Part shown: positions 3,621-20,032 of the stretch, piece by piece | Layout: the number at the start of each line of letters is the position of its first letter | How positions within the stretch are numbered: position 1 is the first letter of the stretch | Assembly: GCA_045106895.1 (NCBI GenBank) | Contig: JBGCFM010000210.1 | Span: forward strand, 1 to 33,882 | DNA from: Polyangiales bacterium | Lineage (GTDB): Bacteria > Myxococcota_A > Polyangia > Polyangiales > Houyiibacteriaceae | DNA length: 33,882 nt | Direction: 5' to 3' | Translations under genes and position numbers: made by a program | Notes under the pieces: model-generated | What the model was told of the DNA's origin: nothing | The model's database searches: none | Seen by the model: only the letters and a program-made list of their open reading frames with translations

Positions 3621-3649
3621 GCCACGGCATTCTTCGGCGTTTGAGTCGT

Positions 3650-6600
3650 ATGAACGCCCGACTCTTCTGGTTTTTGCTCCTCTGCGCCTGTGGAGCTTCG
3701 ATGAGCCCCCAATCGACACGATTCGCCGGCGGCATGGCCTACGACGAGGAGTCAGCTGCCTCCATGGGAGGAGCCAGCGCGCCGGCGGCGGAGGAAGAGG
3801 GCGACGTCAGCGGGAGTGCGCCACAGAGCTGGCGTCGGCACACGGAGCAAGCGACCTTCGCGCAGGTATCGCTGGGCGGAGGCCACACTCTGGAGCTTCG
3901 GGACGTGCGCGTTTCCGTTCGTGTGGAAGGTCATAGGGCGCGCACCGTTGTCGACCATGTCTTCTACAACCCCCACGCGCGAACTCTCGAGGGCACCTTT
4001 CGCTACTCGCTCCCGCCGGAGGCGACGGTGTCGGGCTACGCGATGTTCCTCGGCACAGGAAGCGAGCAGCCTTCGTTCTTTGGCGACGACGACGAGCAAG
4101 CGATGCGCCGGCGGGAGGCGGCACTCCAAGGAGGCAGCGTCGAGGCGCTGACGCAGTCCGTCGATGAGCGTGACTGGGGCCAGCTTCGCGTGGGGCGCTT
4201 CGTTCGCGCGCAGCAGGGACGTGAAGTGTATGAGAACACGACGAGGCGTAACGTCGACCCAGCGCTGGCGGAGACCGTGGGGCCCAACAGCTTCGAAGCC
4301 CGGGTCTTTCCCATCCAGGCCAACGCCTACCATCGCGTCATCGTCAGCTACGAGCAGACGCTCCCGCGCCTCGGTGACGAACTCGAGTATCTCTTTCCAA
4401 TGCCTGAGGGCGAACTCTCCTCCTTGGACTTCTTGCTTCAGGCAGATGGACAAAGCGTGCGCTCTTTGCGTTACACCGGCGACGTTCGCGGTCACGCCCT
4501 CGGCACCTTCGAGCACCACGTTCGCGTGGAGGGGAACACGCAGCCCGGAGCGCTCTCGTATCGCTTCGGTGTGCGCCATCAGAACGGCGTTGAGGCGCTC
4601 GTAGGCACGGACCCCGTCACGAGCGTGAGCCACTTCGCCCTGCGCGTATCCGCCGACGACACGCTCGGTGGCAACACATCGACGGCTTCCAGCGACGCCG
4701 TTTTTCTCCTCGACACCTCTCTCTCGGAGCACCCGGATCGCTTCAGCATCGATGTCGCGCTTCTTCAGGCCATTCTTCGCGACAACTCGCGCATTCGGAG
4801 GTTCAACGTCGTCACCTTCGACGCCGGCGCGCGCTGGCTCTCGTCCGAGTGGTTGCCAAACTCGGAACAAGGGCGTGCCCGGGCCATGTCGACCATCGAC
4901 GAGGTCCTTCTCGAAGGGGCAACGGACCTCTCCGCCGCGCTCTCCACGCTTCACGCGCCGCCCATGAACGCGAGCGAGAGCGTCGATGTCTTTCTCTTGA
5001 GCGACGGAGCCATCACCTGGGGAGAGCGAGACATCGCGACGCTTGTCGCTCCGCGGCAGTCGCCTTGGAACACAATGCGCACCTTCGCGTACCGCACAGG
5101 CCTGGGCGCGGAGAACACAGATCTGCTCCGTCGCGTCGCGCCGGAAGGGGTCTTCAACTGTCTCTCCATGGACAGCGTCCCAGGCTGCGCCGCGGCTCAC
5201 AACCGTCAGGCGATGCGCATCGAGAGCGTGAGCGTGGAAGGCGTCGGCGAGGGCGCTGAAACCGAAGACGTCCTCATCGCCGGAGGCGCCTCGACCTTCG
5301 CGCCGGGCACGGAGCTCGTCGTTGTGGGTCGCCTTCGCCGACCCGGCGCCGCGCGACTTCGCATTCGTGGTCGCCTCGCCGGACGCGCGATGGAGTGGAC
5401 ACGTTCGGTTCAGCTGCAGCCTACCGGCGAACTCGCGTCGCGCGCATGGGCGGAGGTAGCCGTGGCGCACCTGCTGAGCGGCGGGGACTACTCCCAGGAA
5501 GGTCGCGCGCGCGAAGACCTCGCCGTGTCCATTGGTCAGCACTACCGTGTCCCTTCGCGGGTCACTTCGGTTCTTGTCCTCGAGACAGACGCCGAGTACG
5601 AACAGCACGAGCTCCAGGCAGAGTTTAGCCAATGGAGCCCGGAGACCGTCCCATCCGCGCAGGTGCGCACCTCCTGGAGCCGGCTTCGTCGCGCGCTGGA
5701 AGACGGGGAGAGCCACAACCGTTTGGCGCAGCTCGAAGACGGCCGGATCCTCCGCGAGCTCTCACGCATCGTATCTCAGCGTCCGCGTGCCTTCATTGGA
5801 ACCCCCCGCGACGTACCCCTTGTTCTGCGCTCGGATGTCGGGCGCCGCTATCGCCGCGGGATCACGCGGGACGCGGACAGCGTCGAGCACTTTCGAGATG
5901 AAGCCATTCGGCGGCACGCCGAAGGTCAGACCGGGGCCGCGATCCGCGCGCTCTCGAGTAGCGTGGAGAACGCTCCGACCTCGGCCGAGGTCGCTCGCTC
6001 TCTCGCATACACGCTCATCAGTTGGGGCGAGAACGCGGCGGCGGCGGAGCTGCTTTTTTCGGTCCTCGAGCGGCGCGCCTATGAGCCGCAGAGCTATCGT
6101 GATCTTGCTGGCGCGCTCTGGCTCTACCGTCCGAGCATGACGGCGCTGCTCTTCGAGGCGGCTCTTGCCGGCGAGTGGGACGCGCGCTTTCGCGGGGTGC
6201 TCACCGTCGTCCAAGAAGAGTACGCGCTCTTCGCTCAGGCTTTCATTCGCCAGCAGCCGAACGCGCCTTTGGCGCGCTTCTTACGACAGCGCCAGCAGAC
6301 GCTCGCGCTCCGCGTGCCGGAAGGTGACCTGCGAGTCACGATGACGTGGAACACTGACAACACGGACGTCGACCTCTGGGTCACGGACCCCTCCGGCGAG
6401 AAGTGCTACTACGCGCACCCGGATACGGCGGCCGGTGGACATCTACTCGAAGACGTCACGCGGGGCTTTGGGCCCGAGCGCTTCCAGCTTTCAGACGCGC
6501 CGAGGGGCGAGTACCACGTGCAGGCTCACTACTACGGAAACAACGGAAACCGTCTCGTCGCGGATACCTATGTCACGCTGACGGTGACGCGTTATGTCGG

Positions 6601-6685
6601 GACCGAACAACAGCAGATCACCCGCCATGTGGTGCGCCTGGTCGATGCCGGCGAGGACGTCAGCGTGGCGCGCTTTCGGCTCTGA
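3650..6685 (+). CDS. VIT + vWA + TPR-like + DUF2135/YfaP-like lipoprotein
   Basis: Lipobox-like LLLCAC; VIT (ARTVVDHVFYNP..LEGTFRYSLP); MIDAS-like FLLDTSLS and LLSDG; C-terminal LRVTMTWNTDNTDVDLWVTDPSGE...GFGPE. Confidence 0.8.
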   Translation: MNARLFWFLLLCACGASMSPQSTRFAGGMAYDEESAASMGGASAPAAEEEGDVSGSAPQSWRRHTEQATFAQVSLGGGHTLELRDVRVSVRVEGHRARTVVDHVFYNPHARTLEGTFRYSLPPEATVSGYAMFLGTGSEQPSFFGDDDEQAMRRREAALQGGSVEALTQSVDERDWGQLRVGRFVRAQQGREVYENTTRRNVDPALAETVGPNSFEARVFPIQANAYHRVIVSYEQTLPRLGDELEYLFPMPEGELSSLDFLLQADGQSVRSLRYTGDVRGHALGTFEHHVRVEGNTQPGALSYRFGVRHQNGVEALVGTDPVTSVSHFALRVSADDTLGGNTSTASSDAVFLLDTSLSEHPDRFSIDVALLQAILRDNSRIRRFNVVTFDAGARWLSSEWLPNSEQGRARAMSTIDEVLLEGATDLSAALSTLHAPPMNASESVDVFLLSDGAITWGERDIATLVAPRQSPWNTMRTFAYRTGLGAENTDLLRRVAPEGVFNCLSMDSVPGCAAAHNRQAMRIESVSVEGVGEGAETEDVLIAGGASTFAPGTELVVVGRLRRPGAARLRIRGRLAGRAMEWTRSVQLQPTGELASRAWAEVAVAHLLSGGDYSQEGRAREDLAVSIGQHYRVPSRVTSVLVLETDAEYEQHELQAEFSQWSPETVPSAQVRTSWSRLRRALEDGESHNRLAQLEDGRILRELSRIVSQRPRAFIGTPRDVPLVLRSDVGRRYRRGITRDADSVEHFRDEAIRRHAEGQTGAAIRALSSSVENAPTSAEVARSLAYTLISWGENAAAAELLFSVLERRAYEPQSYRDLAGALWLYRPSMTALLFEAALAGEWDARFRGVLTVVQEEYALFAQAFIRQQPNAPLARFLRQRQQTLALRVPEGDLRVTMTWNTDNTDVDLWVTDPSGEKCYYAHPDTAAGGHLLEDVTRGFGPERFQLSDAPRGEYHVQAHYYGNNGNRLVADTYVTLTVTRYVGTEQQQITRHVVRLVDAGEDVSVARFRL

Positions 6686-8300: not shown

Positions 8301-9866
8301 CTACAGAGTGGCGGCATCGATTACCTGTGTCCACGAGGCGCCATCCGCTTGCACGAACTGCCCGACCACGGTGAACACAGCATCGGAGAAACCTCCCACG
8401 TTGAGAACGTCTGGCCGCTGGAGGACTTGGCGGTGGACGTTCGGCGTCAGATCGATGCAGACCAGCTTGGCCTTTGGATTTCGTTTCTTTAGCGTCATCC
8501 ATTGAGACATCATCTCCGTGCCGCGGCTCCAGCCAGAGCGACCCTTCGCGTCCATCCAAGACTCGTTGTCCGAGATGTAGATGAGTACGTCGACCTTGGC
8601 CTTCTCTGCGTTGAGCAGCGCCAGCGGCGCCGAGCAATTCGTTCCTCCGCCGCCGATAGACGCCAGAGCTCCCGCGATGGACATGATGCTGTCCCGTGGG
8701 TTGATCGGCAGCGTCCGAACCTTGTTCTCGAAGGGCAGAACGCGCGCGAGCGGGTTCTTCCGAAGCAGCGCCGCCGAGATCAGACCCGCGACGTCGACGC
8801 AGCGAACCGCCGTAGTGGACCCGCTACGAAACCCCGTCACGGGGCTCTGCATAGAACCAGAAACATCCGGGCAGATCACGACGTGTCCCGAAAGCTCCGG
8901 GATGTTGTGCGTGGCGTGCTCCATGGCGTCCTGAAGCGCCTCGGAGAGACGCGTGGAGAGCCCCTGTGTGCTGTTCCAAGCGACGAGAAGCTGATACGGA
9001 AAGACTTTTGCGCTCCGGACCTCGTCCTCGTCGCCGATGCGTTTCGCCACGAGTTTGATCATCGCCTCGTCATCGAAGACGCCGTGGCGCTGAAACGTGT
9101 TCAGGTTCATTCGTGTCTCGTGCCAACGCGCACGATGCGCGATGTCCGTCCACTCCGTCTTGCCCAGAGGCAGACCTGTGAGCATTCGTGAGGGCACCTT
9201 CGGCACACCTTGAGACTTATCGCCACGCTTCCACGCCTCGTAGTTCAAGACCGCAGCCGGCAGCTTTGAGAGGTCGTGGGGCTTGCCCAGGAGGTAGCCG
9301 AACATAGCCCGCTGCTCGTCGCTTAGAGGCTTCGGGTGAACCATGCGGATCACGTCCGCGAGGGAGGGGTCGTTGCCCACAGAGTCGCGGAAGAGCTGCA
9401 TCGGCGAGCGCTGCTGGAGCCATCGCTGCACGGCCTTCTTTGGCGCGCTGCCCAGAGATTTTCGTCCGAGCTGACCCGAACGAAGGACCTGCACGAAGTT
9501 GCGCAGCATTCGCCCGTTGTCGATGACGCGGGGAAACGCGAGCTTCATGGCCACAAGACCCTCGGGGCCGCGCGTCGCCAAATGCGCCAGAAGCACAGCC
9601 GGCATGTCTTTCATGAATGCGCGCTCGCGTGCGTAGATCGCCGCCTTCGCGACGTAGCGAGCGTCGCACTGAGCGGCGTGCTCCAGGACCACGTCGAGCT
9701 GCTCTTGGCCTGACACGTAGAACGTGCTGCCAAAACAGCCCGTGGCCGCGAGCTGCGCGAGGGCCGTAGGTGAGTCGAGGATGTACGCCGGCGCGCCCGC
9801 GTGATTCATGCTCGTCGTTTTCGGCGCAGCCTTCGCTGCACTTCGGAATAGGGACTTGATGGCCAT
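8301..9866 (-). CDS. rsr: Ro60/TROVE-vWA RNA-binding protein
   Basis: NHAGAPAY, LAQLAATGC..TFY, MKDMPA, MLRNF, PSLADVIRMVHPKP, PYQLL, DVSGSM, GGGTNCS, ISDNESW, VGGFSD; ATG at 9866 after AAAGGA. Confidence 0.93.
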   Translation of the reverse strand: MAIKSLFRSAAKAAPKTTSMNHAGAPAYILDSPTALAQLAATGCFGSTFYVSGQEQLDVVLEHAAQCDARYVAKAAIYARERAFMKDMPAVLLAHLATRGPEGLVAMKLAFPRVIDNGRMLRNFVQVLRSGQLGRKSLGSAPKKAVQRWLQQRSPMQLFRDSVGNDPSLADVIRMVHPKPLSDEQRAMFGYLLGKPHDLSKLPAAVLNYEAWKRGDKSQGVPKVPSRMLTGLPLGKTEWTDIAHRARWHETRMNLNTFQRHGVFDDEAMIKLVAKRIGDEDEVRSAKVFPYQLLVAWNSTQGLSTRLSEALQDAMEHATHNIPELSGHVVICPDVSGSMQSPVTGFRSGSTTAVRCVDVAGLISAALLRKNPLARVLPFENKVRTLPINPRDSIMSIAGALASIGGGGTNCSAPLALLNAEKAKVDVLIYISDNESWMDAKGRSGWSRGTEMMSQWMTLKKRNPKAKLVCIDLTPNVHRQVLQRPDVLNVGGFSDAVFTVVGQFVQADGASWTQVIDAATL

Positions 9867-9886
9867 GGTGTTTCCTTTCGCATTCG

Positions 9887-9922
9887 GCTGCGAAGCTCGA
9901 TGGCAATCGAGTAGGACTTCAT
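9887..9922 (-). repeat. 3' arm of long-range inverted repeat pairing with 12082-12117
   Basis: 9901-9919 is the reverse complement of 12085-12103 at 18/19 positions; flanking GCTGCG/CGCAGC and GTTC/GAGC also pair. Confidence 0.8.
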
Positions 9923-9929
9923 AGAAAGC

Positions 9930-10049
9930 GGGCGACGAGGTGATGCTGAGACAAGGCTGATGTCCTGCCATTGGACGACCGCGTCCGAAGACGCGACTCG
10001 GAGTCGAACCGAGATAGTCAGAGTGATGTAGTCCCAGCGGCATTCGCCC
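9930..10049 (-). ncRNA. YrlA-type Y RNA, copy 1
   Basis: 5' GGGCGAAUG pairs with 3' UCGCCC; CUGGGAC/GUCUCAG stem; T-arm CUCGG-UUCGACU-CCGAG, closed acceptor hairpin CGCGUC-UUCG-GACGCG, D-arm GUCC-AAUGGCA-GGAC; just upstream of rsr. Confidence 0.88.
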
Positions 10050-10135
10050 TGGCGGAAGATGGAGGAGTCGAACCCCTGCGCGTTTACGCCCCCGGTTTTC
10101 GAAACCGGTGTAGCTCCACAGCCACGTCATCTTCC
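10050..10135 (-). tRNA. tRNA-Ser(CGA), 8/4 fold
   Basis: GGAAGAUG/CAUCUUCC acceptor, G73, CCA; CCGGU-UUCGAAA-ACCGG; long variable arm; T-arm GGGG-UUCGACU-CCUC. Confidence 0.85.
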
Positions 10136-10140
10136 ATTGC

Positions 10141-10594
10141 GCTTCTCCGCCCAGCACGCCGCCCTCTGCGTTGCGCTGCGGCTCGGCATCCACAGATGCC
10201 GTCGCCTTGCGCGCCTTGATGGCGGCGCGCTGGACGAAGAATCGCCGAGGATGTTCTTGGGTCCTCGGACCCGTTGGCCCAGCACGCCGCCCTCTGCGTT
10301 GCGCTGCGGCTCGGCATCTACCGATGCCGTCTTCGGTTGTTGTGCTTCCCCGCCCAGCACGCCGCTGACTGCGTTGCGCTCGGTTCGGCATCCACAGATG
10401 CCCTCACCTCGCGCGCCTTGTCAGCGACGCGCTGGACGAGGAATCACGCGGGGTGTTTTCCTGGCTTCGGGGAAGCTCGGTGGCGCCTTGATGGCGGCGC
10501 GCTGGACGAAGAATCGCCGAGGATGTTCTTGGGTCCTCGGACCCGTTGGCCCAGCACGCCGCCCTCTGCGTTGCGCTGCGGCTCGGCATCTACC
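10141..10594. repeat. Cluster of ~100-bp palindromic (REP-like) elements with an exact 112-bp direct repeat
   Basis: Full copies 10141-10243 and 10344-10445 with central GGCATC-CACA-GATGCC, plus half copies; 10211-10322 = 10483-10594. Confidence 0.85.
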
Positions 10595-10607
10595 TTCGAT
10601 AGTAGTC

Positions 10608-10724
10608 GGGCGACGAGGTTGTACTGAGACGTTTCCCGACGCCCTCCCATTGGGCCACCGCGTGTTGCGACTCGGATTCGAACCGAGATATTCGGGGTCG
10701 TTGTAGTCCCAGCGGCATTCGCCC
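10608..10724 (-). ncRNA. YrlA-type Y RNA, copy 2
   Basis: Same 5' GGGCGAAUGCCGCUGGGACUACA and 3' GUCUCAG...CCUCGUCGCCC as copy 1; T-arm CUCGG-UUCGAAU-CCGAG; D-arm GCCC-AAUGGGA-GGGC; compensatory changes versus copy 1. Confidence 0.88.
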
Positions 10725-10811
10725 TGGAGGAAGCTGGAGGAGTCGAACCCCGACGCGCTTGCGCCACCCGCTTTCCAGGCGAGCTCGGCGACCATCGCCG
10801 ATGCAGCTTCC
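10725..10811 (-). tRNA. tRNA-Ser(GGA), 8/4 fold, extended D-stem, U73
   Basis: GGAAGCUG/CAGCUUCC-U-CCA; D-arm UCGGCG-AUGGU-CGCCGA; CUCGC-CUGGAAA-GCGGG; long variable arm. Confidence 0.82.
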
Positions 10812-10820
10812 CAAGTTTGT

Positions 10821-10920
10821 GCTTCCCCGCCCAGCACGCCGTCTCAGCGTCGCGCCGCGGTTCGGCATCCATAGTGCCGTCGCCTTGCGCTCCTGGGTCT
10901 CGACGCGGTGGACGAAGAAT
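10821..10920. repeat. Diverged third full copy of the palindromic element
   Basis: GCTTCCCCGCCCAGCACGCCG...GGCATCCATAGTGCC...TGGACGAAGAAT. Confidence 0.8.
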
Positions 10921-10988
10921 TATCGTGCGGTGTGCACCCGCGAAGGCGGAGGCATGATTGGCGCGCCTCTTTCCGTTCGGCTCCATCG

Positions 10989-11064
10989 TGGTGTGAATGG
11001 AGGGAGTCGAACCCCCACTGGGCCGAGTTTAAAACGGCTGCCTCTTCCATTGGGCTACACTCAC
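10989..11064 (-). tRNA. tRNA-Leu(TAA), short variable loop
   Basis: 76 nt; GUGAGUG/CAUUCAC-A-CCA; loop UU-UAA-AC. Confidence 0.85.
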
Positions 11065-11153
11065 TGGTGCTGTACGAACTACGCCGCGGGTGTGCACCTG
11101 CGAAGGCGTAGGCGGCGCCTGCAGCTGACGGGTAAGGACGTCAGCATGGAGCT

Positions 11154-11229
11154 TGGTGACGATGGAGAGATTCGAACTCTCACTGAGCTGTTTCTAAGAC
11201 AGCTGCCTCTCCCGTTGGGCTACATCGCC
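11154..11229 (-). tRNA. tRNA-Leu(TAG), short variable loop
   Basis: 76 nt; GGCGAUG/CAUCGUC-A-CCA; GCUGU-CUUAGAA-ACAGC. Confidence 0.88.
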
Positions 11230-11251
11230 GATGTTTGTTTTAGAGAAAAAG

Positions 11252-11327
11252 TGGTGCGAGCGAAGGGAGTCGAACCCCCACTGGGCCGAGTTTGAAACGG
11301 CTGCCTCTTCCGTTGGGCTACACTCGC
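11252..11327 (-). tRNA. tRNA-Leu(CAA), short variable loop
   Basis: 76 nt; GCGAGUG/CGCUCGC-A-CCA; loop UU-CAA-AC; near-duplicate of Leu(TAA). Confidence 0.85.
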
Positions 11328-11351
11328 AGCGTCTTCTCGTCTGAGAAGACG

Positions 11352-11423
11352 TGGTCCCGCCGGGTGGAATCGAACCACCCTCGCCGCCCATATGAAGAGC
11401 GCGCCGGTCCAACCGTCGGCGGG
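11352..11423 (-). tRNA. tRNA-Met/Ile2(CAT) with shortened D-arm
   Basis: CCCGCCG/CGGCGGG-A-CCA; CGCUC-UUCAUAU-GGGCG; T-arm GGUGG-UUCGAUU-CCACC; 72 nt. Confidence 0.72.
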
Positions 11424-11426
11424 ATT

Positions 11427-11654
11427 TGGTAGCGGGGCCAGGAGTCGAACCTGAGTGCTGAGGGATATGAACCCAGTGTCGCGATGGGGTACTTTGACTC
11501 CGAACTCGAGGCCCTCGTCAGCGATCTCGGGTTCGCATCACCTCGAATGTGCAAGCACGTCCTTCGGCGAAGCGACTCCCGACCTCACGGGCGATCATCC
11601 ACGACTAAGGAGCCAAACCACCCCATCGCGACACAGACGCCGGTCTTCCCCGCA
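11427..11654 (-). tRNA. Initiator-like tRNA-fMet(CAT) interrupted by a 157-bp insertion (possible pseudogene)
   Basis: UGCGGGG/CCCCGCU-A-CCA with 1:72 mismatch; GGG-UUCAUAU-CCC; T-arm UCAGG-UUCGACU-CCUGG; insertion between D-arm and anticodon arm. Confidence 0.72.
11477..11633. mobile_element. MITE-like element
   Basis: TG...CA ends; 14-bp perfect TIR TGTCGCGATGGGGT extending to 25 bp with 3 mismatches; flanked by CAG at 11474-11476 and 11634-11636; no transposase. Confidence 0.7.
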
Positions 11655-11694
11655 AAGGAAGCCATCGATGCGCCCGTGGGCACACCAATGGACT

Positions 11695-11770
11695 TGGTGG
11701 AGTCGAGGGGAACCGAACCCCTGACCTCGTGGGTGCAAATCACGCGCTCTCCCAACTGAGCTACGACCCC
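11695..11770 (-). tRNA. tRNA-Ala(TGC)
   Basis: GGGGUCG/CGACUCC-A-CCA with G3:U70; loop UU-UGC-AC; T-loop UUCGGUU. Confidence 0.88.
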
Positions 11771-11783
11771 AAGATTTTCGAAA

Positions 11784-11859
11784 CGGTGATCCGAGCGTGA
11801 ATCGAACACGCGACTTCCTGAATGTTAAACAGGCACTCTCCCTACTGAGCTATCGGATC
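11784..11859 (-). tRNA. tRNA-Val(AAC)
   Basis: GAUCCGA/UCGGAUC-A-CCG; CCUGU-UUAACAU-UCAGG; T-arm GCGUG-UUCGAUU-CACGC. Confidence 0.8.
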
Positions 11860-11873
11860 AAAATGCGCCGGTG

Positions 11874-11945
11874 CGGCAGGTCGTCGAGGAGTTGAACCCC
11901 GCGCAGCTGGTGTTGGAAGCCTGCTTGTGCCCCGGCACACGACCT
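11874..11945 (-). tRNA. tRNA-Trp(CCA), shortened D-arm, degenerate anticodon stem
   Basis: AGGUCGU/ACGACCU-G-CCG; loop UU-CCA-AC; T-arm CGGGG-UUCAACU-CCUCG. Confidence 0.65.
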
Positions 11946-11983
11946 AGAGTTCCCTTCCGAGGAGTTTCCGAATGGAAGGAAAA

Positions 11984-12046
11984 GTGGCGACGAGAAGTTA
12001 GAGAGACATGGCTATCATGCGATGTAGTCCCCCTGGCATTCGCCAC
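11984..12046 (-). ncRNA. Minimal Y-RNA-like element (Ro-binding module only)
   Basis: GUGGCGAAUGCCAGGGGGACUACAUC...GUCUCUCU...UCGUCGCCAC: same termini and GGGACUACA core as the two Yrl copies, no tRNA-like domain. Confidence 0.72.
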
Positions 12047-12051
12047 GAAGT

Positions 12052-12079
12052 TGGTGCGTGAGCTTGGGAAAACCCACGC
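12052..12079 (-). other. ACCA-terminated microhelix
   Basis: GCGUGGGUUU-UCCC-AAGCUCACGC-A-CCA. Confidence 0.45.
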
Positions 12080-12081
12080 GA

Positions 12082-12117
12082 ATAAAGTCCTACTCGATTG
12101 TCAAAGAACGACGCAGC
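12082..12117 (-). promoter_or_regulatory. boxA-like antitermination site within the 5' arm of the long-range duplex
   Basis: CGUUCUUUGACAAU (12110-12097) resembles rrn boxA; complementary to 9887-9922. Confidence 0.65.
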
Positions 12118-12210
12118 ACGACATCCCTCCATGAGCTGGAGGCAAAGAAGTGCATTTGATATGTGCATTTGAAGTGCGCATATCTTCGTCTCTTGTTCGT
12201 TAGAACAAGT

Positions 12211-12286
12211 GGGTGGATCCGGAGGGCATCGAACCCTCAACCGCCCGGGTAAGAACCGGGTGCTCTGCCTGTTGAGCTACGGATCC
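12211..12286 (-). tRNA. tRNA-Lys(CTT)
   Basis: GGAUCCG/CGGAUCC-A-CCC; CCCGG-UUCUUAC-CCGGG. Confidence 0.88.
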
Positions 12287-12287
12287 C

Positions 12288-12362
12288 TGGTGGGGCTGAA
12301 GGGTGTCGAACCCCCAACCGTCCGGGTAAAAACCGGCTGCTCTGCCGTTGAGCTACAACCCC
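12288..12362 (-). tRNA. tRNA-Lys(TTT)
   Basis: GGGGUUG/CAGCCCC-A-CCA; GCCGG-UUUUUAC-CCGGA. Confidence 0.88.
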
Positions 12363-12467
12363 AGGTGGTGTTGCAGCGTCCGTTTGTATCGTTCCATGTG
12401 TTGTCTTTCCCGTGCGACCGTTGAGACTTCAGAGGGGACCCTCAGGAGGATGAGTGCGTCCAAGAAC

Positions 12468-12500
12468 AAAAAAAACCGCCCGAGGCTGGTGCCTGGGCGG
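12468..12500 (-). terminator. Intrinsic terminator (attenuator) upstream of the tRNA array
   Basis: CCGCCC-AGGC-ACCA-GCCU-C-GGGCGG followed by U8. Confidence 0.85.
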
Positions 12501-12535
12501 GTTCGATACGTGTGAGAACGTATTTCGAAGCCGCC
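12496..12535 (-). promoter_or_regulatory. Antiterminator hairpin overlapping the terminator 5' arm
   Basis: GGCGG-C-UUCG-AA-AUACG-UUCUCACA-CGUAU-CGAA-C-CCGCC; the final CCGCC is shared with the terminator. Confidence 0.7.
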
Positions 12536-12708
12536 TAGGTGAGGTTTGCCTCTCCCACGAGCTTGGCCATGAGCTTGGCTACGGGCTTGCTGAGAATTGC
12601 CGATACCGACAAGGATGAAGAACCTAATGAAAGGACGAGCGCATCGAGAGAGCCAAGGTGTTTGCCTTGCCATCGCTTTGCTTCGGTCTGTTCGTTCAGG
12701 TGTTGCAT
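12535..12708 (-). CDS. Putative 57-aa attenuator leader peptide
   Basis: MQHLNEQTEAKRWQGKHLGSLDALVLSLGSSSLSVSAILSKPVAKLMAKLVGEANLT*; stop codon at the base of the antiterminator; no clear SD. Confidence 0.5.
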   Translation of the reverse strand: MQHLNEQTEAKRWQGKHLGSLDALVLSLGSSSLSVSAILSKPVAKLMAKLVGEANLT

Positions 12709-12746
12709 GACGTGTTGGTGTGAGGGGATGCCCCCTCGAGAACTTC

Positions 12747-12774
12747 ATAGTGCACGCATATTTGCGAGGGTCAA
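12747..12774 (-). promoter_or_regulatory. Candidate sigma70-type promoter of the array
   Basis: TTGACC-16 nt-CACTAT; spacer contains the palindrome CGCA-AATA-TGCG. Confidence 0.45.
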
Positions 12775-12862
12775 GAGATGTGATCAATTAAAGTAGATTT
12801 TAAATTCTCGTGTCTCTCGGAAGGCGGTCGCTGCTGGATACACGTGGACTACAATTGGCGCG

Positions 12863-13462
12863 ATGAGCAAAGAGACCTGGGATGAGCGCGCGGACGACTG
12901 GGACGAGCAAGAGGAGACACATGTCTACGCCGCTCAGGCGTTTGAAACATTGGTTCCGTATGTTGAAGAACATCTCGGCGAGTGGAGGAGCTTGCGCGTC
13001 CTCGACTTTGGAGCGGGCACCGGACTGCTGACGGCGAAGCTCGCGCCCAAGTGCCGACAGCTCGTTGCCCTCGACCTCTCGCCGAAGATGATCGCGCAGC
13101 TCGACAAGAAGGCCACGGCGGCAGGGTGGGACAACGTCTCGTCCGTCGCAGGGACGCTGAGCGCACTCGACGACACCGGCGCGTTCGATCTGATCGTTGC
13201 GTCCTCGGTGTGTAGTTTCCTCTCGGACTTCCCCAGGGAGCTACGCAAGCTCTCTTCAATGCTCCGGCCGGGGGGCTTGTTTGTGCAATGGGATTGGCAA
13301 CAGAACGCAGCCACCGAGTGGTCTGACGGCTTCTCGGAAGAGGACCTCCGCCGGGCTTACGCTCCAGCGCAGCTCGAAGTCGTTCGCGCGAGTCTCGGCT
13401 TCACGTTTGCCTTTGATGGCAAGGGACTCGAGGTGTTGATGGGAGTTGGCAAGAGAGCGTAG
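12863..13462 (+). CDS. Class I SAM-dependent methyltransferase
   Basis: VLDFGAGTGL, ALDLSPKMI, FDLIVAS, LRPGG. Confidence 0.9.
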   Translation: MSKETWDERADDWDEQEETHVYAAQAFETLVPYVEEHLGEWRSLRVLDFGAGTGLLTAKLAPKCRQLVALDLSPKMIAQLDKKATAAGWDNVSSVAGTLSALDDTGAFDLIVASSVCSFLSDFPRELRKLSSMLRPGGLFVQWDWQQNAATEWSDGFSEEDLRRAYAPAQLEVVRASLGFTFAFDGKGLEVLMGVGKRA

Positions 13463-13498
13463 CGGTGCTGCGCGGCGGCACTGAGCGCCGGCTGTTCT

Positions 13499-14062
13499 TT
13501 AGGAGGCGAAACTCTCGGGGTCGGCGTCGCCAAGGGGAGGCGGAAGACCGGGGAGCGCGGTTTGGTTCTCAATGTCGAGGAGGATGTCCTCGAAGGACTC
13601 TTCGTTTTCTTCGCACCACGACTCGACGCATACAGGGTGCAGGTAGCCCGCGCCCTTTCGTGTGAAGTTCCCCGTGTCGATCTCACGCTCCACGGCGATA
13701 CGAACGCTGCCTTTTTCGATGGCGTCATCACAGAGAATGCACTTGGCGCGGCCTGTCGGGGCGAGGTCCGCGTTGGGGAGTGCACCGCTTCCCTTTGAGC
13801 CTTTTCCGGCGCTGCTCTTGATGAGCGCGTGAAGCTCGTCGCGATTCGGGACCTCGTCCGAATACGCTTCGAGGGCGGGACCCACGAGGTCTCCTTTGGC
13901 GCCGGCGGCACACTTCAGGTGATGCCAGACTTTCTGTACGCCAGCCGAGCCAAACTGGCTGGGCACCTCTTCGCCGAAACGCAGGTCGCCCTTGGGGATC
14001 TTGTCTTTGCACGTTCGGCACGCGGCGCGTCCCGAAGGAGAAACATGAATGCTGTGTGCCAT
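13499..14062 (-). CDS. Tandem PARP-type zinc finger protein
   Basis: SPSGRAACRTCKDKIPKGDLRFG...WHHLKC and APTGRAKCILCDDAIEKGSVRI...YLHPVC; AAGGAG SD. Confidence 0.82.
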   Translation of the reverse strand: MAHSIHVSPSGRAACRTCKDKIPKGDLRFGEEVPSQFGSAGVQKVWHHLKCAAGAKGDLVGPALEAYSDEVPNRDELHALIKSSAGKGSKGSGALPNADLAPTGRAKCILCDDAIEKGSVRIAVEREIDTGNFTRKGAGYLHPVCVESWCEENEESFEDILLDIENQTALPGLPPPLGDADPESFAS

Positions 14063-14180
14063 GGTGGTCCGTTGCTCCTTGTTGGTCGCGGGAATCTCGC
14101 ACGACGAGGAGAGGGGCGGCAAGGGCGAGGAAGCGCGAATCTATCGAAGGCTTCACCTGGAGGCGGCGCTATAGTGCGCC

Positions 14181-18679: not shown

Positions 18680-18745
18680 CCATTGGTTCGGCGAAGGGCT
18701 CCGCCCACCTTGGCAAGAGCAAGGCGATCCCGTTACCTTACGCGA

Positions 18746-20032
18746 ATGAACGGACTCGCGCGTGCCTGGTTGGCGGCCTTCAGCGTGCTCGCTGCATGTT
18801 CCAACAATGGCAGCGAGATCTCAGTCACCCTGCGTACTGACTACGTACCGCAAGTGGAGTTCGATGAGGTCCGAGTATTCCTCGCCATGGACGGCGGCCG
18901 CGAAGAAGTGCTCTCGCAGTCCGCGCGTTCGCTCGACTATGTGCAAGGTCAGCGAATCGTCACGTTTGAGGACATCGTTCCTGGGGACTACCGTCTCCGT
19001 GCTCAATTGCATCGAGGTAACGTGATCGTTGGCTCCCGCTCGGTGGGCTTTTCGCCGACGCAGGATACAAACGCCACTCTGATCGTGACCCGCTCCTGCG
19101 AAGGTGTGATGTGCCCTGGCGCCGACCCCATGGCGACGGAGTGTTCCGGAGGGCGTTGCGTCTTGCCCGCATGCTCGCCCGAAGCACCGGCTGCATGCGG
19201 CGAAGGCTGCGTGGTGGATGGGGACTGCGTCGCGACGGCTGCGTGCGCGGAAGGACGTTGCACGACGGAAGGCTCGTGTGTGTTTACGGGCGCCGCCGGC
19301 GCTTGTGGCGACTCGGAGTACTGCGACGCGCAGGTCGGCTGTTTGCCTCGGTGCGCGAATGGGTCTTGCGGAGACGCTGGCGTCTTGGATGCGCGACCTC
19401 TCGGCTACGTCTGGCGCACTGGGGAGTTCGGCGCTTGCTCGGCGGGCTGCGGCGTCGGAGAAGAGAGCCGGACCGTGACCTGCGTCGATTCGGCAGGCGC
19501 GGAAGTCGATGGCTCGCTGTGTACAGGACCCGCCCCCGACGCTACTCGAGGTTGCGACGCAGGTTCGCCAACGTGCGGTCTGGGCGAGTGGTCCGAGTTC
19601 GATGGATGCGATTCAATGTGCACGCAGACCCAGACGCGTTCTTGCGACGTTCAGGGCCATTGCGCCGAGGCAACCGAACAAACGCGCGAGTGTTCGGGGG
19701 GAAGTTGCTGCCCTCGTGCGGGCGATACGTGTGGACCCACCACCTATCGGCAGTCAGGGGGATGGACATGCCGGGACGACGGACCGGGCGACTTCAACCA
19801 GCTCTTCTACTCCAACTACATCTTCGTCGAGCGTCGATGCAATGCGTCACGAACCTGTGTTCCTCAAGATCTCCTGCGGAGCCTGGAGTGTATCTGCAGC
19901 GAAGCCGGTCCGGGATGCAGCAGCCCTAGCAGCGGCTGCGAGGGTGAGATCGCTTTCGCGCGCTGCCGGGACGCCTCGACGGGCGACCGCGGCGACTGCC
20001 CGAGCACGGATGTGTACGCAGAGTGTTTCTGA
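18746..20032 (+). CDS. Cys-rich lipoprotein with thrombospondin type-1-like repeats
   Basis: Lipobox LAAC; WRTGEFGACSAGCGVGEESRTVTC and WSEFDGCDSMCTQTQTRSC. Confidence 0.75.
   Translation: MNGLARAWLAAFSVLAACSNNGSEISVTLRTDYVPQVEFDEVRVFLAMDGGREEVLSQSARSLDYVQGQRIVTFEDIVPGDYRLRAQLHRGNVIVGSRSVGFSPTQDTNATLIVTRSCEGVMCPGADPMATECSGGRCVLPACSPEAPAACGEGCVVDGDCVATAACAEGRCTTEGSCVFTGAAGACGDSEYCDAQVGCLPRCANGSCGDAGVLDARPLGYVWRTGEFGACSAGCGVGEESRTVTCVDSAGAEVDGSLCTGPAPDATRGCDAGSPTCGLGEWSEFDGCDSMCTQTQTRSCDVQGHCAEATEQTRECSGGSCCPRAGDTCGPTTYRQSGGWTCRDDGPGDFNQLFYSNYIFVERRCNASRTCVPQDLLRSLECICSEAGPGCSSPSSGCEGEIAFARCRDASTGDRGDCPSTDVYAECF

Follow-up and report, generated by a model that had tools for sequence, protein, structure and literature searches.

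How can an array of tRNA genes be expressed when an intrinsic terminator stands in front of it? The question is posed by a stretch of 33,882 nucleotides (nt) from a Polyangiales bacterium (GenBank assembly GCA_045106895.1, contig JBGCFM010000210.1; the whole stretch is called the window below), in which ten tRNA genes are preceded by a leader open reading frame (ORF), a hairpin that takes in the end of this ORF, and a terminator. The window is contig C125 of the source genome, G000 (7.7 Mb, 288 contigs, 96% complete). On the minus strand, the module runs from a TTGACC block through a hairpin in the 5´ untranslated region (UTR), a C/A-rich stretch, the ORF, the hairpin, the terminator and a 105-nt spacer to the ten tRNA genes (Table 1). 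Comparison with related loci makes it probable, in our judgement, that this is the core of a ribosome-mediated transcription attenuator gating a supernumerary tRNA operon, because the overlap of the two hairpins is conserved with compensatory changes, the stop codon is invariant within one hairpin arm, the reading frame is preserved and the gaps between terminator and first tRNA are short. For the attenuator core and a tuning of leader codons to the array to hold jointly, we put the chances as even.

From the anatomy, the conservation and the constraints on frame and stop codon, which are read from the sequence, we infer translation, termination, readthrough, a role for a GAGG element and feedback as follows. 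Transcription would start at the conserved TTGACC block, and the 57-codon leader would be translated while RNA polymerase moves on. A leading ribosome that reaches the UAG in time would cover region 2 (CCUAGGCGG), so that regions 3 and 4 pair, the terminator forms and the array is off. If the ribosome is late, stalled or absent, regions 2 and 3 would pair and allow readthrough into ten tRNAs, two Y-RNA-like elements and Ro60. The Shine-Dalgarno-like GAGG would hold the terminating ribosome on region 2, and leader codons tuned to the array tRNAs would turn the operon on when their decoders are short and off when they are supplied, a negative feedback. The original prediction, made from the window alone, had likewise proposed that complete translation leads to termination and stalling to readthrough; the conserved overlap, stop and frame now add comparative evidence to this proposal.

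The switch and its relatives

In the window, GGCGG (12535-12531), whose first base is the G of the stop codon, pairs with CCGCC (12500-12496) to form the outer stem of the antiterminator. If the A of UAG is bulged out, the stem is extended by pairing of CCU (12539-12537) with AGG (12494-12492), and the stop codon is thus part of the antiterminator 5´ arm. The ORF of 57 codons had been predicted to stop at a hairpin (12535-12496) that sequesters the 5´ arm of the U8 terminator. The first part is correct and the overlap goes further, since the CCU:AGG pairing puts the stop inside the arm; the second is exact, CCGCC at 12500-12496 being the first bases of the terminator. The terminator itself has a G+C-rich stem of 10 bp with one bulge, a 4-nt loop and eight U residues, and was missed by a simple promoter and terminator scan in which the loop limit was 8 and the stem was counted differently.

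A window transcript that ends before region 4 folds to the antiterminator (-40.1 kcal/mol), and a ribosome-sized mask placed on the stop codon lets the terminator fold. The minimum free energy (MFE) structure of the unconstrained full-length RNA contains the terminator and a shortened upstream hairpin (-49.4 kcal/mol; z -2.40; 4 of 200 shuffles fold as well). The full-length RNA at equilibrium thus favours the terminator, a point against the proposed switch; the outcome would be decided kinetically, as it is at the trp attenuator.

The comparison was made over 28 non-redundant Polyangiales (Myxococcota) loci from genomes and metagenome contigs, from which duplicates and look-alike terminators had been removed. 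The same-genus genome G001 aligns with the whole region at 70% identity. The exact terminator pattern was found in 5 of 88 family genomes, on 6 genome contigs and on 7 metagenome contigs, and a covariance model matched 16 of 151 genomes in the order sample, 12 of them with true modules and 4 with ordinary terminators only. None of the five matches of model R2 outside the order, in a phylum-wide sample, is a module, all five being ordinary terminators without tRNAs. Other candidates were rejected within the family and order: in 7 of the 13 family genomes matched by model R1 the match is an ordinary terminator after protein genes or a single tRNA, and 5 of 21 new loci of model R2 in the order (L069, L070, L072, L073 and L079) are also ordinary terminators, as is L096, which lacks tRNAs. 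L026 has an exact terminator match with tRNAs downstream and was excluded from the 28, its TGA lying 32 nt upstream with no antiterminator that contains it; L031 (on the same contig as the viral locus L093) and L032 have only the terminator in common.

In these loci the arrangement recurs. By script, 26 of 28 loci fold into the antiterminator, stop codon in its arm, while region 4 has yet to be made, and so does the window, which was folded separately; in L030 the antiterminator forms only in short context. Short-context folds give the antiterminator in 13 of 14 cases, and extending the upstream context to 60-75 nt does not prevent it. The original prediction had named a lack of conserved hairpin overlap as a ground for refutation; the overlap recurs in 27 of 28 loci, with the stop codon within the antiterminator 5´ arm. 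The position of the stop codon, which the original prediction had proposed to check in homologous arrays, is the same in all 28 (UAG in 26, UGA in L025, UAA in L066). In L025 and L066 an extra base alters the local sequence, yet the stop stays at the same codon, while the bases flanking and preceding the stop vary among loci. A mask over the stop (-12 to +14) yields the terminator in 27 of 28 loci by script and also in the window, a result of geometry only. Without the mask, the terminator wins in 11 of 28 full-length folds by script, or 12 of 28 with the window as refolded, and the untranslated state should therefore be ON, that is, readthrough. No upstream 1:2 protector hairpin of the trp type is conserved among the 28 loci folded; the window has a local hairpin touching CCUA that is not conserved in relatives.

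In most relatives region 2 is GCCUAGGGCGG and the terminator 3´ arm is GCCUCGGGCGG, near copies that compete for CCGCCCAGGC, their single difference being the bulged base, which creates the stop codon. Compensatory changes accompany this mimicry: L047 has GGACGG:CCGUCC in place of GGGCGG:CCGCCC, and in a second module of the source genome (on contig C270, see below) the usual A of region 3 is a U, which pairs with the A of UAG. The outer stem was judged by folding each sequence, as MAFFT and model-fitted alignments put region 2 out of register (GGCGG against GGGCGG). The inner hairpin differs in sequence in each lineage with its pairing kept, showing double changes at 4 of 4 consensus pairs and a covariation score reached by 0 of 500 shuffles. 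The terminator is conserved in 28 of 28 loci; its stem hardly varies (5 of 12 pairs are invariant) and is uninformative either way.

Downstream of the modules are tRNA genes in 26 of 28 loci and an HNH endonuclease gene in the other two (L029 and L033, both on metagenome contigs, where the gene comes directly after the module). Most of the arrays comprise 20-26 tRNAs in a recurring order that starts with Tyr, Lys, Lys, Gln and Asn, and the distribution of modules within the order is patchy. In six relatives (L076, L067, L059, L063, L068 and L061) the first tRNA starts 10-27 nt past the terminator, too short a gap to hold a promoter; there, the arrays can only be transcribed through the terminator. 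The HNH gene of L033 (486-40, minus strand) has a Pfam HNH match of 2.8e-13.

The second module of the source genome, L034, lies at about 1003-701 on the minus strand of contig C270, where a 75-codon leader precedes tRNAs for Tyr, Gln and Asn and the contig ends. Contig C74 (L035) starts inside an array of 17 tRNAs with an embedded HNH gene (17847-17431, minus strand; 70% identical to the L033 protein), and the C270 array probably continues there. Between them, the window array and the C270/C74 arrays supply tRNAs for almost every amino acid, and Met is the only one that they have in common.

Leader codons and the arrays behind them

The composition of the window leader sets it apart from the genes of its genome. 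Its G+C content is 0.53 against about 0.63 for the window, in line with the earlier description of its codon run as AT-rich for the context. Eleven of its 57 codons are rare (within-amino-acid usage below 0.1), where 57-codon windows of long G000 genes have a mean of 2.6 (p 0.002), and its codon adaptation index is 0.457 against 0.671 ± 0.075. Of its 57 residues, 36 are Leu, Ser, Ala, Val, Lys or Met (p 0.004 relative to windows taken from real genes), and the Leu/Ser-rich run has a binomial probability of about 1e-4 after correction for 47 windows. In contigs of other public runs, a variant at 12629, present in one run, changes a leader TCA to TTA, Ser to Leu, both of them rare codons. Other strain variants are a U7 in place of the U8 tract (12468) in two runs and small changes in the loop of the 5´ UTR hairpin; in all, these are a handful, taken from DNA contigs of four public runs. 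No RNA run was listed among the sequencing runs that contain the locus.

The array tRNAs on which the original prediction had relied, Leu TAA/TAG/CAA and Ser CGA/GGA, are all found by ARAGORN, and the ten anticodons of the array can decode 21 of 56 leader codons, where a share of 21.5% would be expected (p 0.005). Of the 74 codons of the C270 leader, 10 fit the window array and 48 the complementary array that the leader itself precedes, so that the two leaders of the source genome are reciprocally biased (Fisher p 3e-4), and a permutation of leaders against arrays over seven loci gives p 0.011. The clearest case is the module L076/L080 (genome G109, contig C744, about 2060-1740, minus strand), which has a good Shine-Dalgarno sequence, a 24-codon leader, a pair of tRNA-Gln genes and then a protein gene. 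Eight of its 24 codons are for Gln (7 CAG, 1 CAA; binomial 1.3e-7), and the only tRNAs are tRNA-Gln CUG and UUG at +10 and +113, a clean single-amino-acid case if the reading is true. By comparison, the leader of G002, which stands before an undivided 23-tRNA array, has no bias (32 of 57 against 0.627 expected).

The strongest competitor to tuning keeps the attenuator and makes it a general sensor that gauges translation capacity: whatever delays the first ribosome, be it antibiotics, ribosome shortage, starvation or tRNA damage of any kind, would lead to readthrough, and the composition of the leader, rather than matching the array, would reflect weak constraint on a stretch of lower GC. We hold this to be a possible but less probable account. 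It gains from the fact that most modules precede full arrays of 20-26 tRNAs, for which specific matching is not possible, from the free drift of the peptide sequences and from a G+C content at third codon positions (GC3) of 0.61 in the window leader, as expected from little codon selection; a long tRNA array in Anabaena is also induced by general impairment of translation, according to the accessible text of PMC8421152. The reciprocal bias of the two leaders in the source genome, the Gln-run leader before a Gln-only tRNA pair and the permutation result are what it does not account for.

Several observations weigh against tuning. Under strict wobble the array reads five of the eight Ser codons and three of the ten Leu codons in the window leader, and the proposed match of Ser/Leu rare codons to the array therefore stands only in part: the leader is rich in rare codons and its codons taken together are decodable above expectation, but only 8 of 18 Ser/Leu codons fit. 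Three of eight leaders lack enrichment (G229 with 3/9, L028 with 6/22, and G002), a distribution that the general sensor would explain, and L074, with one tRNA-Phe detected, has a single Phe codon. The G001 leader stays rich in Ser, Ala and Val despite a reduced array, ARAGORN finding only Lys, Lys, Met and Leu tRNAs behind it, which again fits a general sensor. Low GC3 and rare codons would also be expected of a weakly selected intergenic ORF of lower GC, repeat slippage could account for the CAG run of L076, and the leader start codons and array limits entering these counts were chosen by the analyst. Weighing both sides, we lean slightly towards selection of leader codon content to match the array.

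In its fullest form the reading is more tentative, and we rate it a little below even: the Polyangiales would carry a family of self-regulating, horizontally spread tRNA operons with a stop codon built into the antiterminator, a GAGG on which the ribosome is parked and leaders that come to mirror their arrays after these split (Gln only in L076; Leu, Ser, Ala, Lys, Val and Met in the window), each gauging how fast exactly those tRNAs decode and replenishing them, here with a Ro60/Y-RNA module. Replenishment would be triggered by, e.g., tRNA-cleaving toxins, phage attack or antibiotic stress. A search of phage records with the 500-nt leader region gave no match.

Possible translation of the leader

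That a ribosome operates the switch is suggested by the constraints on the reading frame. The frame of the stop codon is the most open upstream frame in 21 of 28 loci (one third expected, p 8e-6; the loci are not all independent), and the median open lengths of the three frames are 75.5, 34 and 22.5 codons. Among homologues with conserved starts, leader lengths differ by 27, 9, 3, 6 and 6 nt, all five being multiples of three ((1/3)^5 = 0.004), and the window ORF is kept in frame across a 27-nt length difference from that of G001. Start contexts are conserved within groups.

Other features speak against translation or are neutral to it. In the window, another frame is more open than that of the stop (83 codons against 69). 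Many leader starts, including that of the window, have no Shine-Dalgarno sequence; the weak one suggested by the original prediction was not found before the ATG, while the nearby GAGGGGG is, as it had stated, locked in a hairpin with CCCCTC. Where four related leaders differ, all three codon positions are affected about equally (e.g. 8, 12, 10). Purifying selection on the peptide itself is not seen, which fits a leader peptide and also fits untranslated RNA. The 57-residue peptide of the window has no Pfam match, and a protein search of 201 genomes of the order gave only chance-level matches besides the window (best E 0.0375), with no relatives outside the genus at E below 0.03; the leader peptide is not a conserved protein. 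If anything is under selection, it is only the act of translation.

The GAGG element bears on the same question. In 21 of 28 loci a GAGG or GGAG precedes the stop by 4-12 nt (mode 8), whereas control windows farther upstream contain one in 5 of 112 cases. The element has no fixed register with the reading frame, its spacing being 7, 8 or 10 nt depending on the locus, so it is conserved as RNA and not as amino acids. Base pairing with the anti-Shine-Dalgarno of the terminating ribosome would, we infer, let it hold that ribosome on region 2. An alternative pairing with the CCUC of region 4 is unlikely, L076, L047 and L068 having no CCUC there.

The same element can be turned to another use. The switch could be real and be driven by a factor that binds the leader, such as a 30S subunit on the GAGG that covers region 2, a Ro60 ribonucleoprotein or other RNA-binding protein, or a tRNA, the UAG being an RNA motif. 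The GAGG stands at a start-codon-like distance from the UAG (mode 8 nt), and the missing Shine-Dalgarno sequences, the even substitutions and the Ro60 and Y-RNA-like genes in the tRNA unit of the window all agree with such a factor. It would leave unexplained why the stop's frame is preferentially open, why length changes keep the frame in five of five groups, why start contexts are conserved and why the stop is kept as UGA or UAA despite an inserted base (L025, L066). Moreover, Ro60 was not seen beside the homologous arrays examined (e.g. G001). Rfam gave no match other than tRNA at gathering score, and no cis-regulatory family, over the whole window; at E up to 10 over 12300-12900, only a chance snoRNA match was added, with no T-box and no riboswitch. 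We consider a factor-driven switch improbable.

Very unlikely, finally, is a reading in which the ORF is just a small gene, or has no function, and is followed by a terminator of its own, the array has a promoter in the 105-nt spacer and the hairpins overlap incidentally: the spacer (12467-12363) is long enough and conserved in G001, and the full-length MFE structure of the window does show both hairpins side by side, but the first tRNA of six relatives begins 10-27 nt past the U-run, nearly all loci have a region 2 that imitates region 4, with compensatory changes, the peptide shows no conservation at the protein level, and a simple sigma-70 scan of 9500-13500 found no promoter-like site and no full match.

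For the ribosome-mediated attenuator, the conserved block upstream of the leader is probably the promoter of a common leader and array transcript; TTGAC(C/T/A) recurs at a comparable position in other loci. Hairpins of other sequence occupy the place of the 5´ UTR hairpin in G001, G002, the C270 module, L066 and L067.

Known systems and the rest of the window

Leader-peptide attenuators are known from enterobacteria at trpL, hisL, leuL, thrL, ilvL and pheL, and also at pheST. The module resembles this class (on which see the accessible part of PMC3082878) in its short leader ORF, in an intrinsic terminator before the regulated genes with an antiterminator that shares a terminator strand, in a leader stop at the start of region 2, where a terminating ribosome would favour the terminator, and, in some members (L076), in a codon run for a single amino acid. 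It differs in that the targets are tRNA genes (with Y-RNA-like elements and Ro60) and not biosynthetic enzymes or a synthetase, that its leaders are long (10-75 codons) and mostly of mixed composition, that a conserved Shine-Dalgarno-like element lies about 8 nt before the stop, and that there is no conserved 1:2 protector, the antiterminator being favoured without a ribosome. For the last reason, too, the untranslated state would be ON, unlike in trp superattenuation. The 1:2 hairpin defines the trp type and not the whole attenuator class.

T-boxes act on synthetase or amino-acid genes by directly binding uncharged tRNA, and translation is not required. The likeness to them lies in a choice between antiterminator and terminator that reports tRNA status; Rfam gives no T-box match in the window. 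In mycobacteria, stalling on the upstream ORF (uORF) of whiB7 is believed to cause antitermination, making the uORF a sensor of translation stress; its sequence varies by species with an alanine bias kept, and whiB7 is activated by inhibiting tRNA, tRNA synthetase and amino-acid biosynthetic genes (accessible text of PMC10274678). That system controls a transcription factor rather than tRNA genes and belongs to another phylum, and the two are compared here by description only.

The arrays behind these modules are like the L-arrays of PMC8421152: supernumerary, co-oriented arrays, here mostly of 20-26 tRNAs, with a patchy distribution and a linked HNH endonuclease gene. The trn array of Anabaena is induced when translation is impaired (PMC8421152), which is the output predicted by the attenuator model. 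Its control is by a repressor, TrcR, acting on direct repeats at the promoter, whereas here a post-initiation leader ORF and terminator are proposed; in the words of its authors, the repressor work gives first indications of tRNA gene regulation (PMC8421152). The words leader and terminator and any beginning with attenuat do not occur in the accessible text of PMC8421152 and PMC10272220, nor does terminator or readthrough in that of the tRNA-array surveys PMC4758250, PMC5966550 and PMC6515697. No description of a leader ORF or attenuator before tRNA arrays was found in the literature covered, subscription journals being outside the coverage. An attenuator-like leader at E. coli pheU/pheV, which we had considered as a precedent, found no support in this literature and was dropped. 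The module differs from known attenuators in that its proposed targets are tRNA genes, that no protector hairpin is conserved, that the stop codon is embedded in a near copy of the terminator arm and that a GAGG element is present.

The regulation of individual bacterial tRNA genes is largely unknown. If the attenuator reading is true, it would provide direct translation-coupled feedback on tRNA supply, a homeostatic control by attenuation, and would explain how costly, horizontally acquired arrays are silenced until needed; the module would be a compact, portable sensor of decoding speed. The GAGG upstream of the stop points to a means of keeping a terminating ribosome in place that is not known to have been described, and the link to Ro60 and Y-RNA-like elements would tie tRNA supply to RNA quality control.

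Table 1. Features of the module and its transcription unit in the window
Feature	Coordinates	Strand	Basis or remark
Conserved upstream block, -35-like TTGACC at 12774-12769	12741-12800	-	Near-identical in the alignment with same-genus G001
5´ UTR hairpin GAGGGG(G)/CCCCTC (GAGGGGG 12737-12731 with CCCCTC 12727-12722), followed by a C/A-rich unstructured stretch to the ATG	12722-12737	-	Read and folded
Leader ORF, 57 sense codons and TAG (ATG 12708-12706, TAG 12537-12535)	12535-12708	-	Start context identical in G001
Leu/Ser-rich rare-codon run, codons 26-36 (CTT TCA TTA GGT TCT TCA TCC TTG TCG GTA TCG)	12601-12633	-	9 of 11 residues Leu or Ser
Shine-Dalgarno-like GGGAGAGG, 11 nt upstream of the stop	12549-12556	-	GAGG/GGAG element of most loci
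Region 2, outer 5´ arm of the antiterminator (CCUAGGCGG), stop codon inside	12531-12539	-	Resembles terminator 3´ arm
Inner hairpin of the antiterminator, enclosed by the outer stem	12502-12529	-	Persists beside the terminator
Intrinsic terminator (region 3 12500-12491, loop 12490-12487, region 4 12486-12476, U8 12475-12468)	12468-12500	-	Folding
Spacer from terminator to first tRNA, 105 nt	12363-12467	-	Largely conserved in G001
Array of 10 tRNA genes: Lys UUU, Lys CUU, Val AAC, Ala UGC, Met CAU, Leu CAA, Leu UAG, Leu UAA, Ser GGA, Ser CGA	10050-12362	-	ARAGORN, Rfam tRNA
Two YrlA-like (Y RNA) candidates (10725-10604, 10050-9926)	9926-10725	-	RF02553, 48.0 and 50.3 bits; each directly after a tRNA-Ser
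Ro60 (Rsr) orthologue gene	8301-9866	-	Pfam vWA_Ro60 5e-17, TROVE 2e-7

The window array and the C270/C74 unit (3 + 17) hold 30 of the 74 tRNA genes of the genome. Within G000, tRNA-Lys CUU, tRNA-Leu UAG and tRNA-Val AAC occur only in the window array, which may not be purely redundant. The anticodon AAC of the tRNA-Val (11859-11785, minus strand), with A34, is to our knowledge unusual for bacterial Val; related arrays also carry Leu AAG and Arg ACG. The two YrlA-like candidates score below the RF02553 gathering score of 69, with E values of 5e-9 and 1e-9. The Ro60 gene lies on the strand of the array, 60 nt past the second of them, and is probably the last gene of the transcription unit, so that the array would end in a Ro60/Y-RNA module on one transcript.

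An 18-nt motif, CTTTGACAATCGAG(A/T)AGG, is found in spacers inside or just after the start of the array in L024, L025, L027, L028, L030, L074 and G001 (L002, about 2165-2182), and the window has one match with one mismatch at 12106-12089 on the minus strand, where 0.03 would be expected; the motif may serve as an internal promoter (TTGACA) or mark a processing site. On inspection by eye, about 60-120 nt of sequence recur several times as a unit between and after the two tRNA-Ser genes (about 10900-10150, minus strand), with the strings gatgccga.ccgcagcgcaacgcag and ggcgtgctgggc. Among the neighbouring genes, a class I methyltransferase (12863-13462, plus strand) is divergent from the leader and upstream of it, and a protein with two PARP-type zinc fingers is encoded at 13499-14122 (minus strand). 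Further away on the plus strand are genes for a VIT-vWA-TPR protein (3641-6685) and a thrombospondin type 1 repeat protein (18683-20032).

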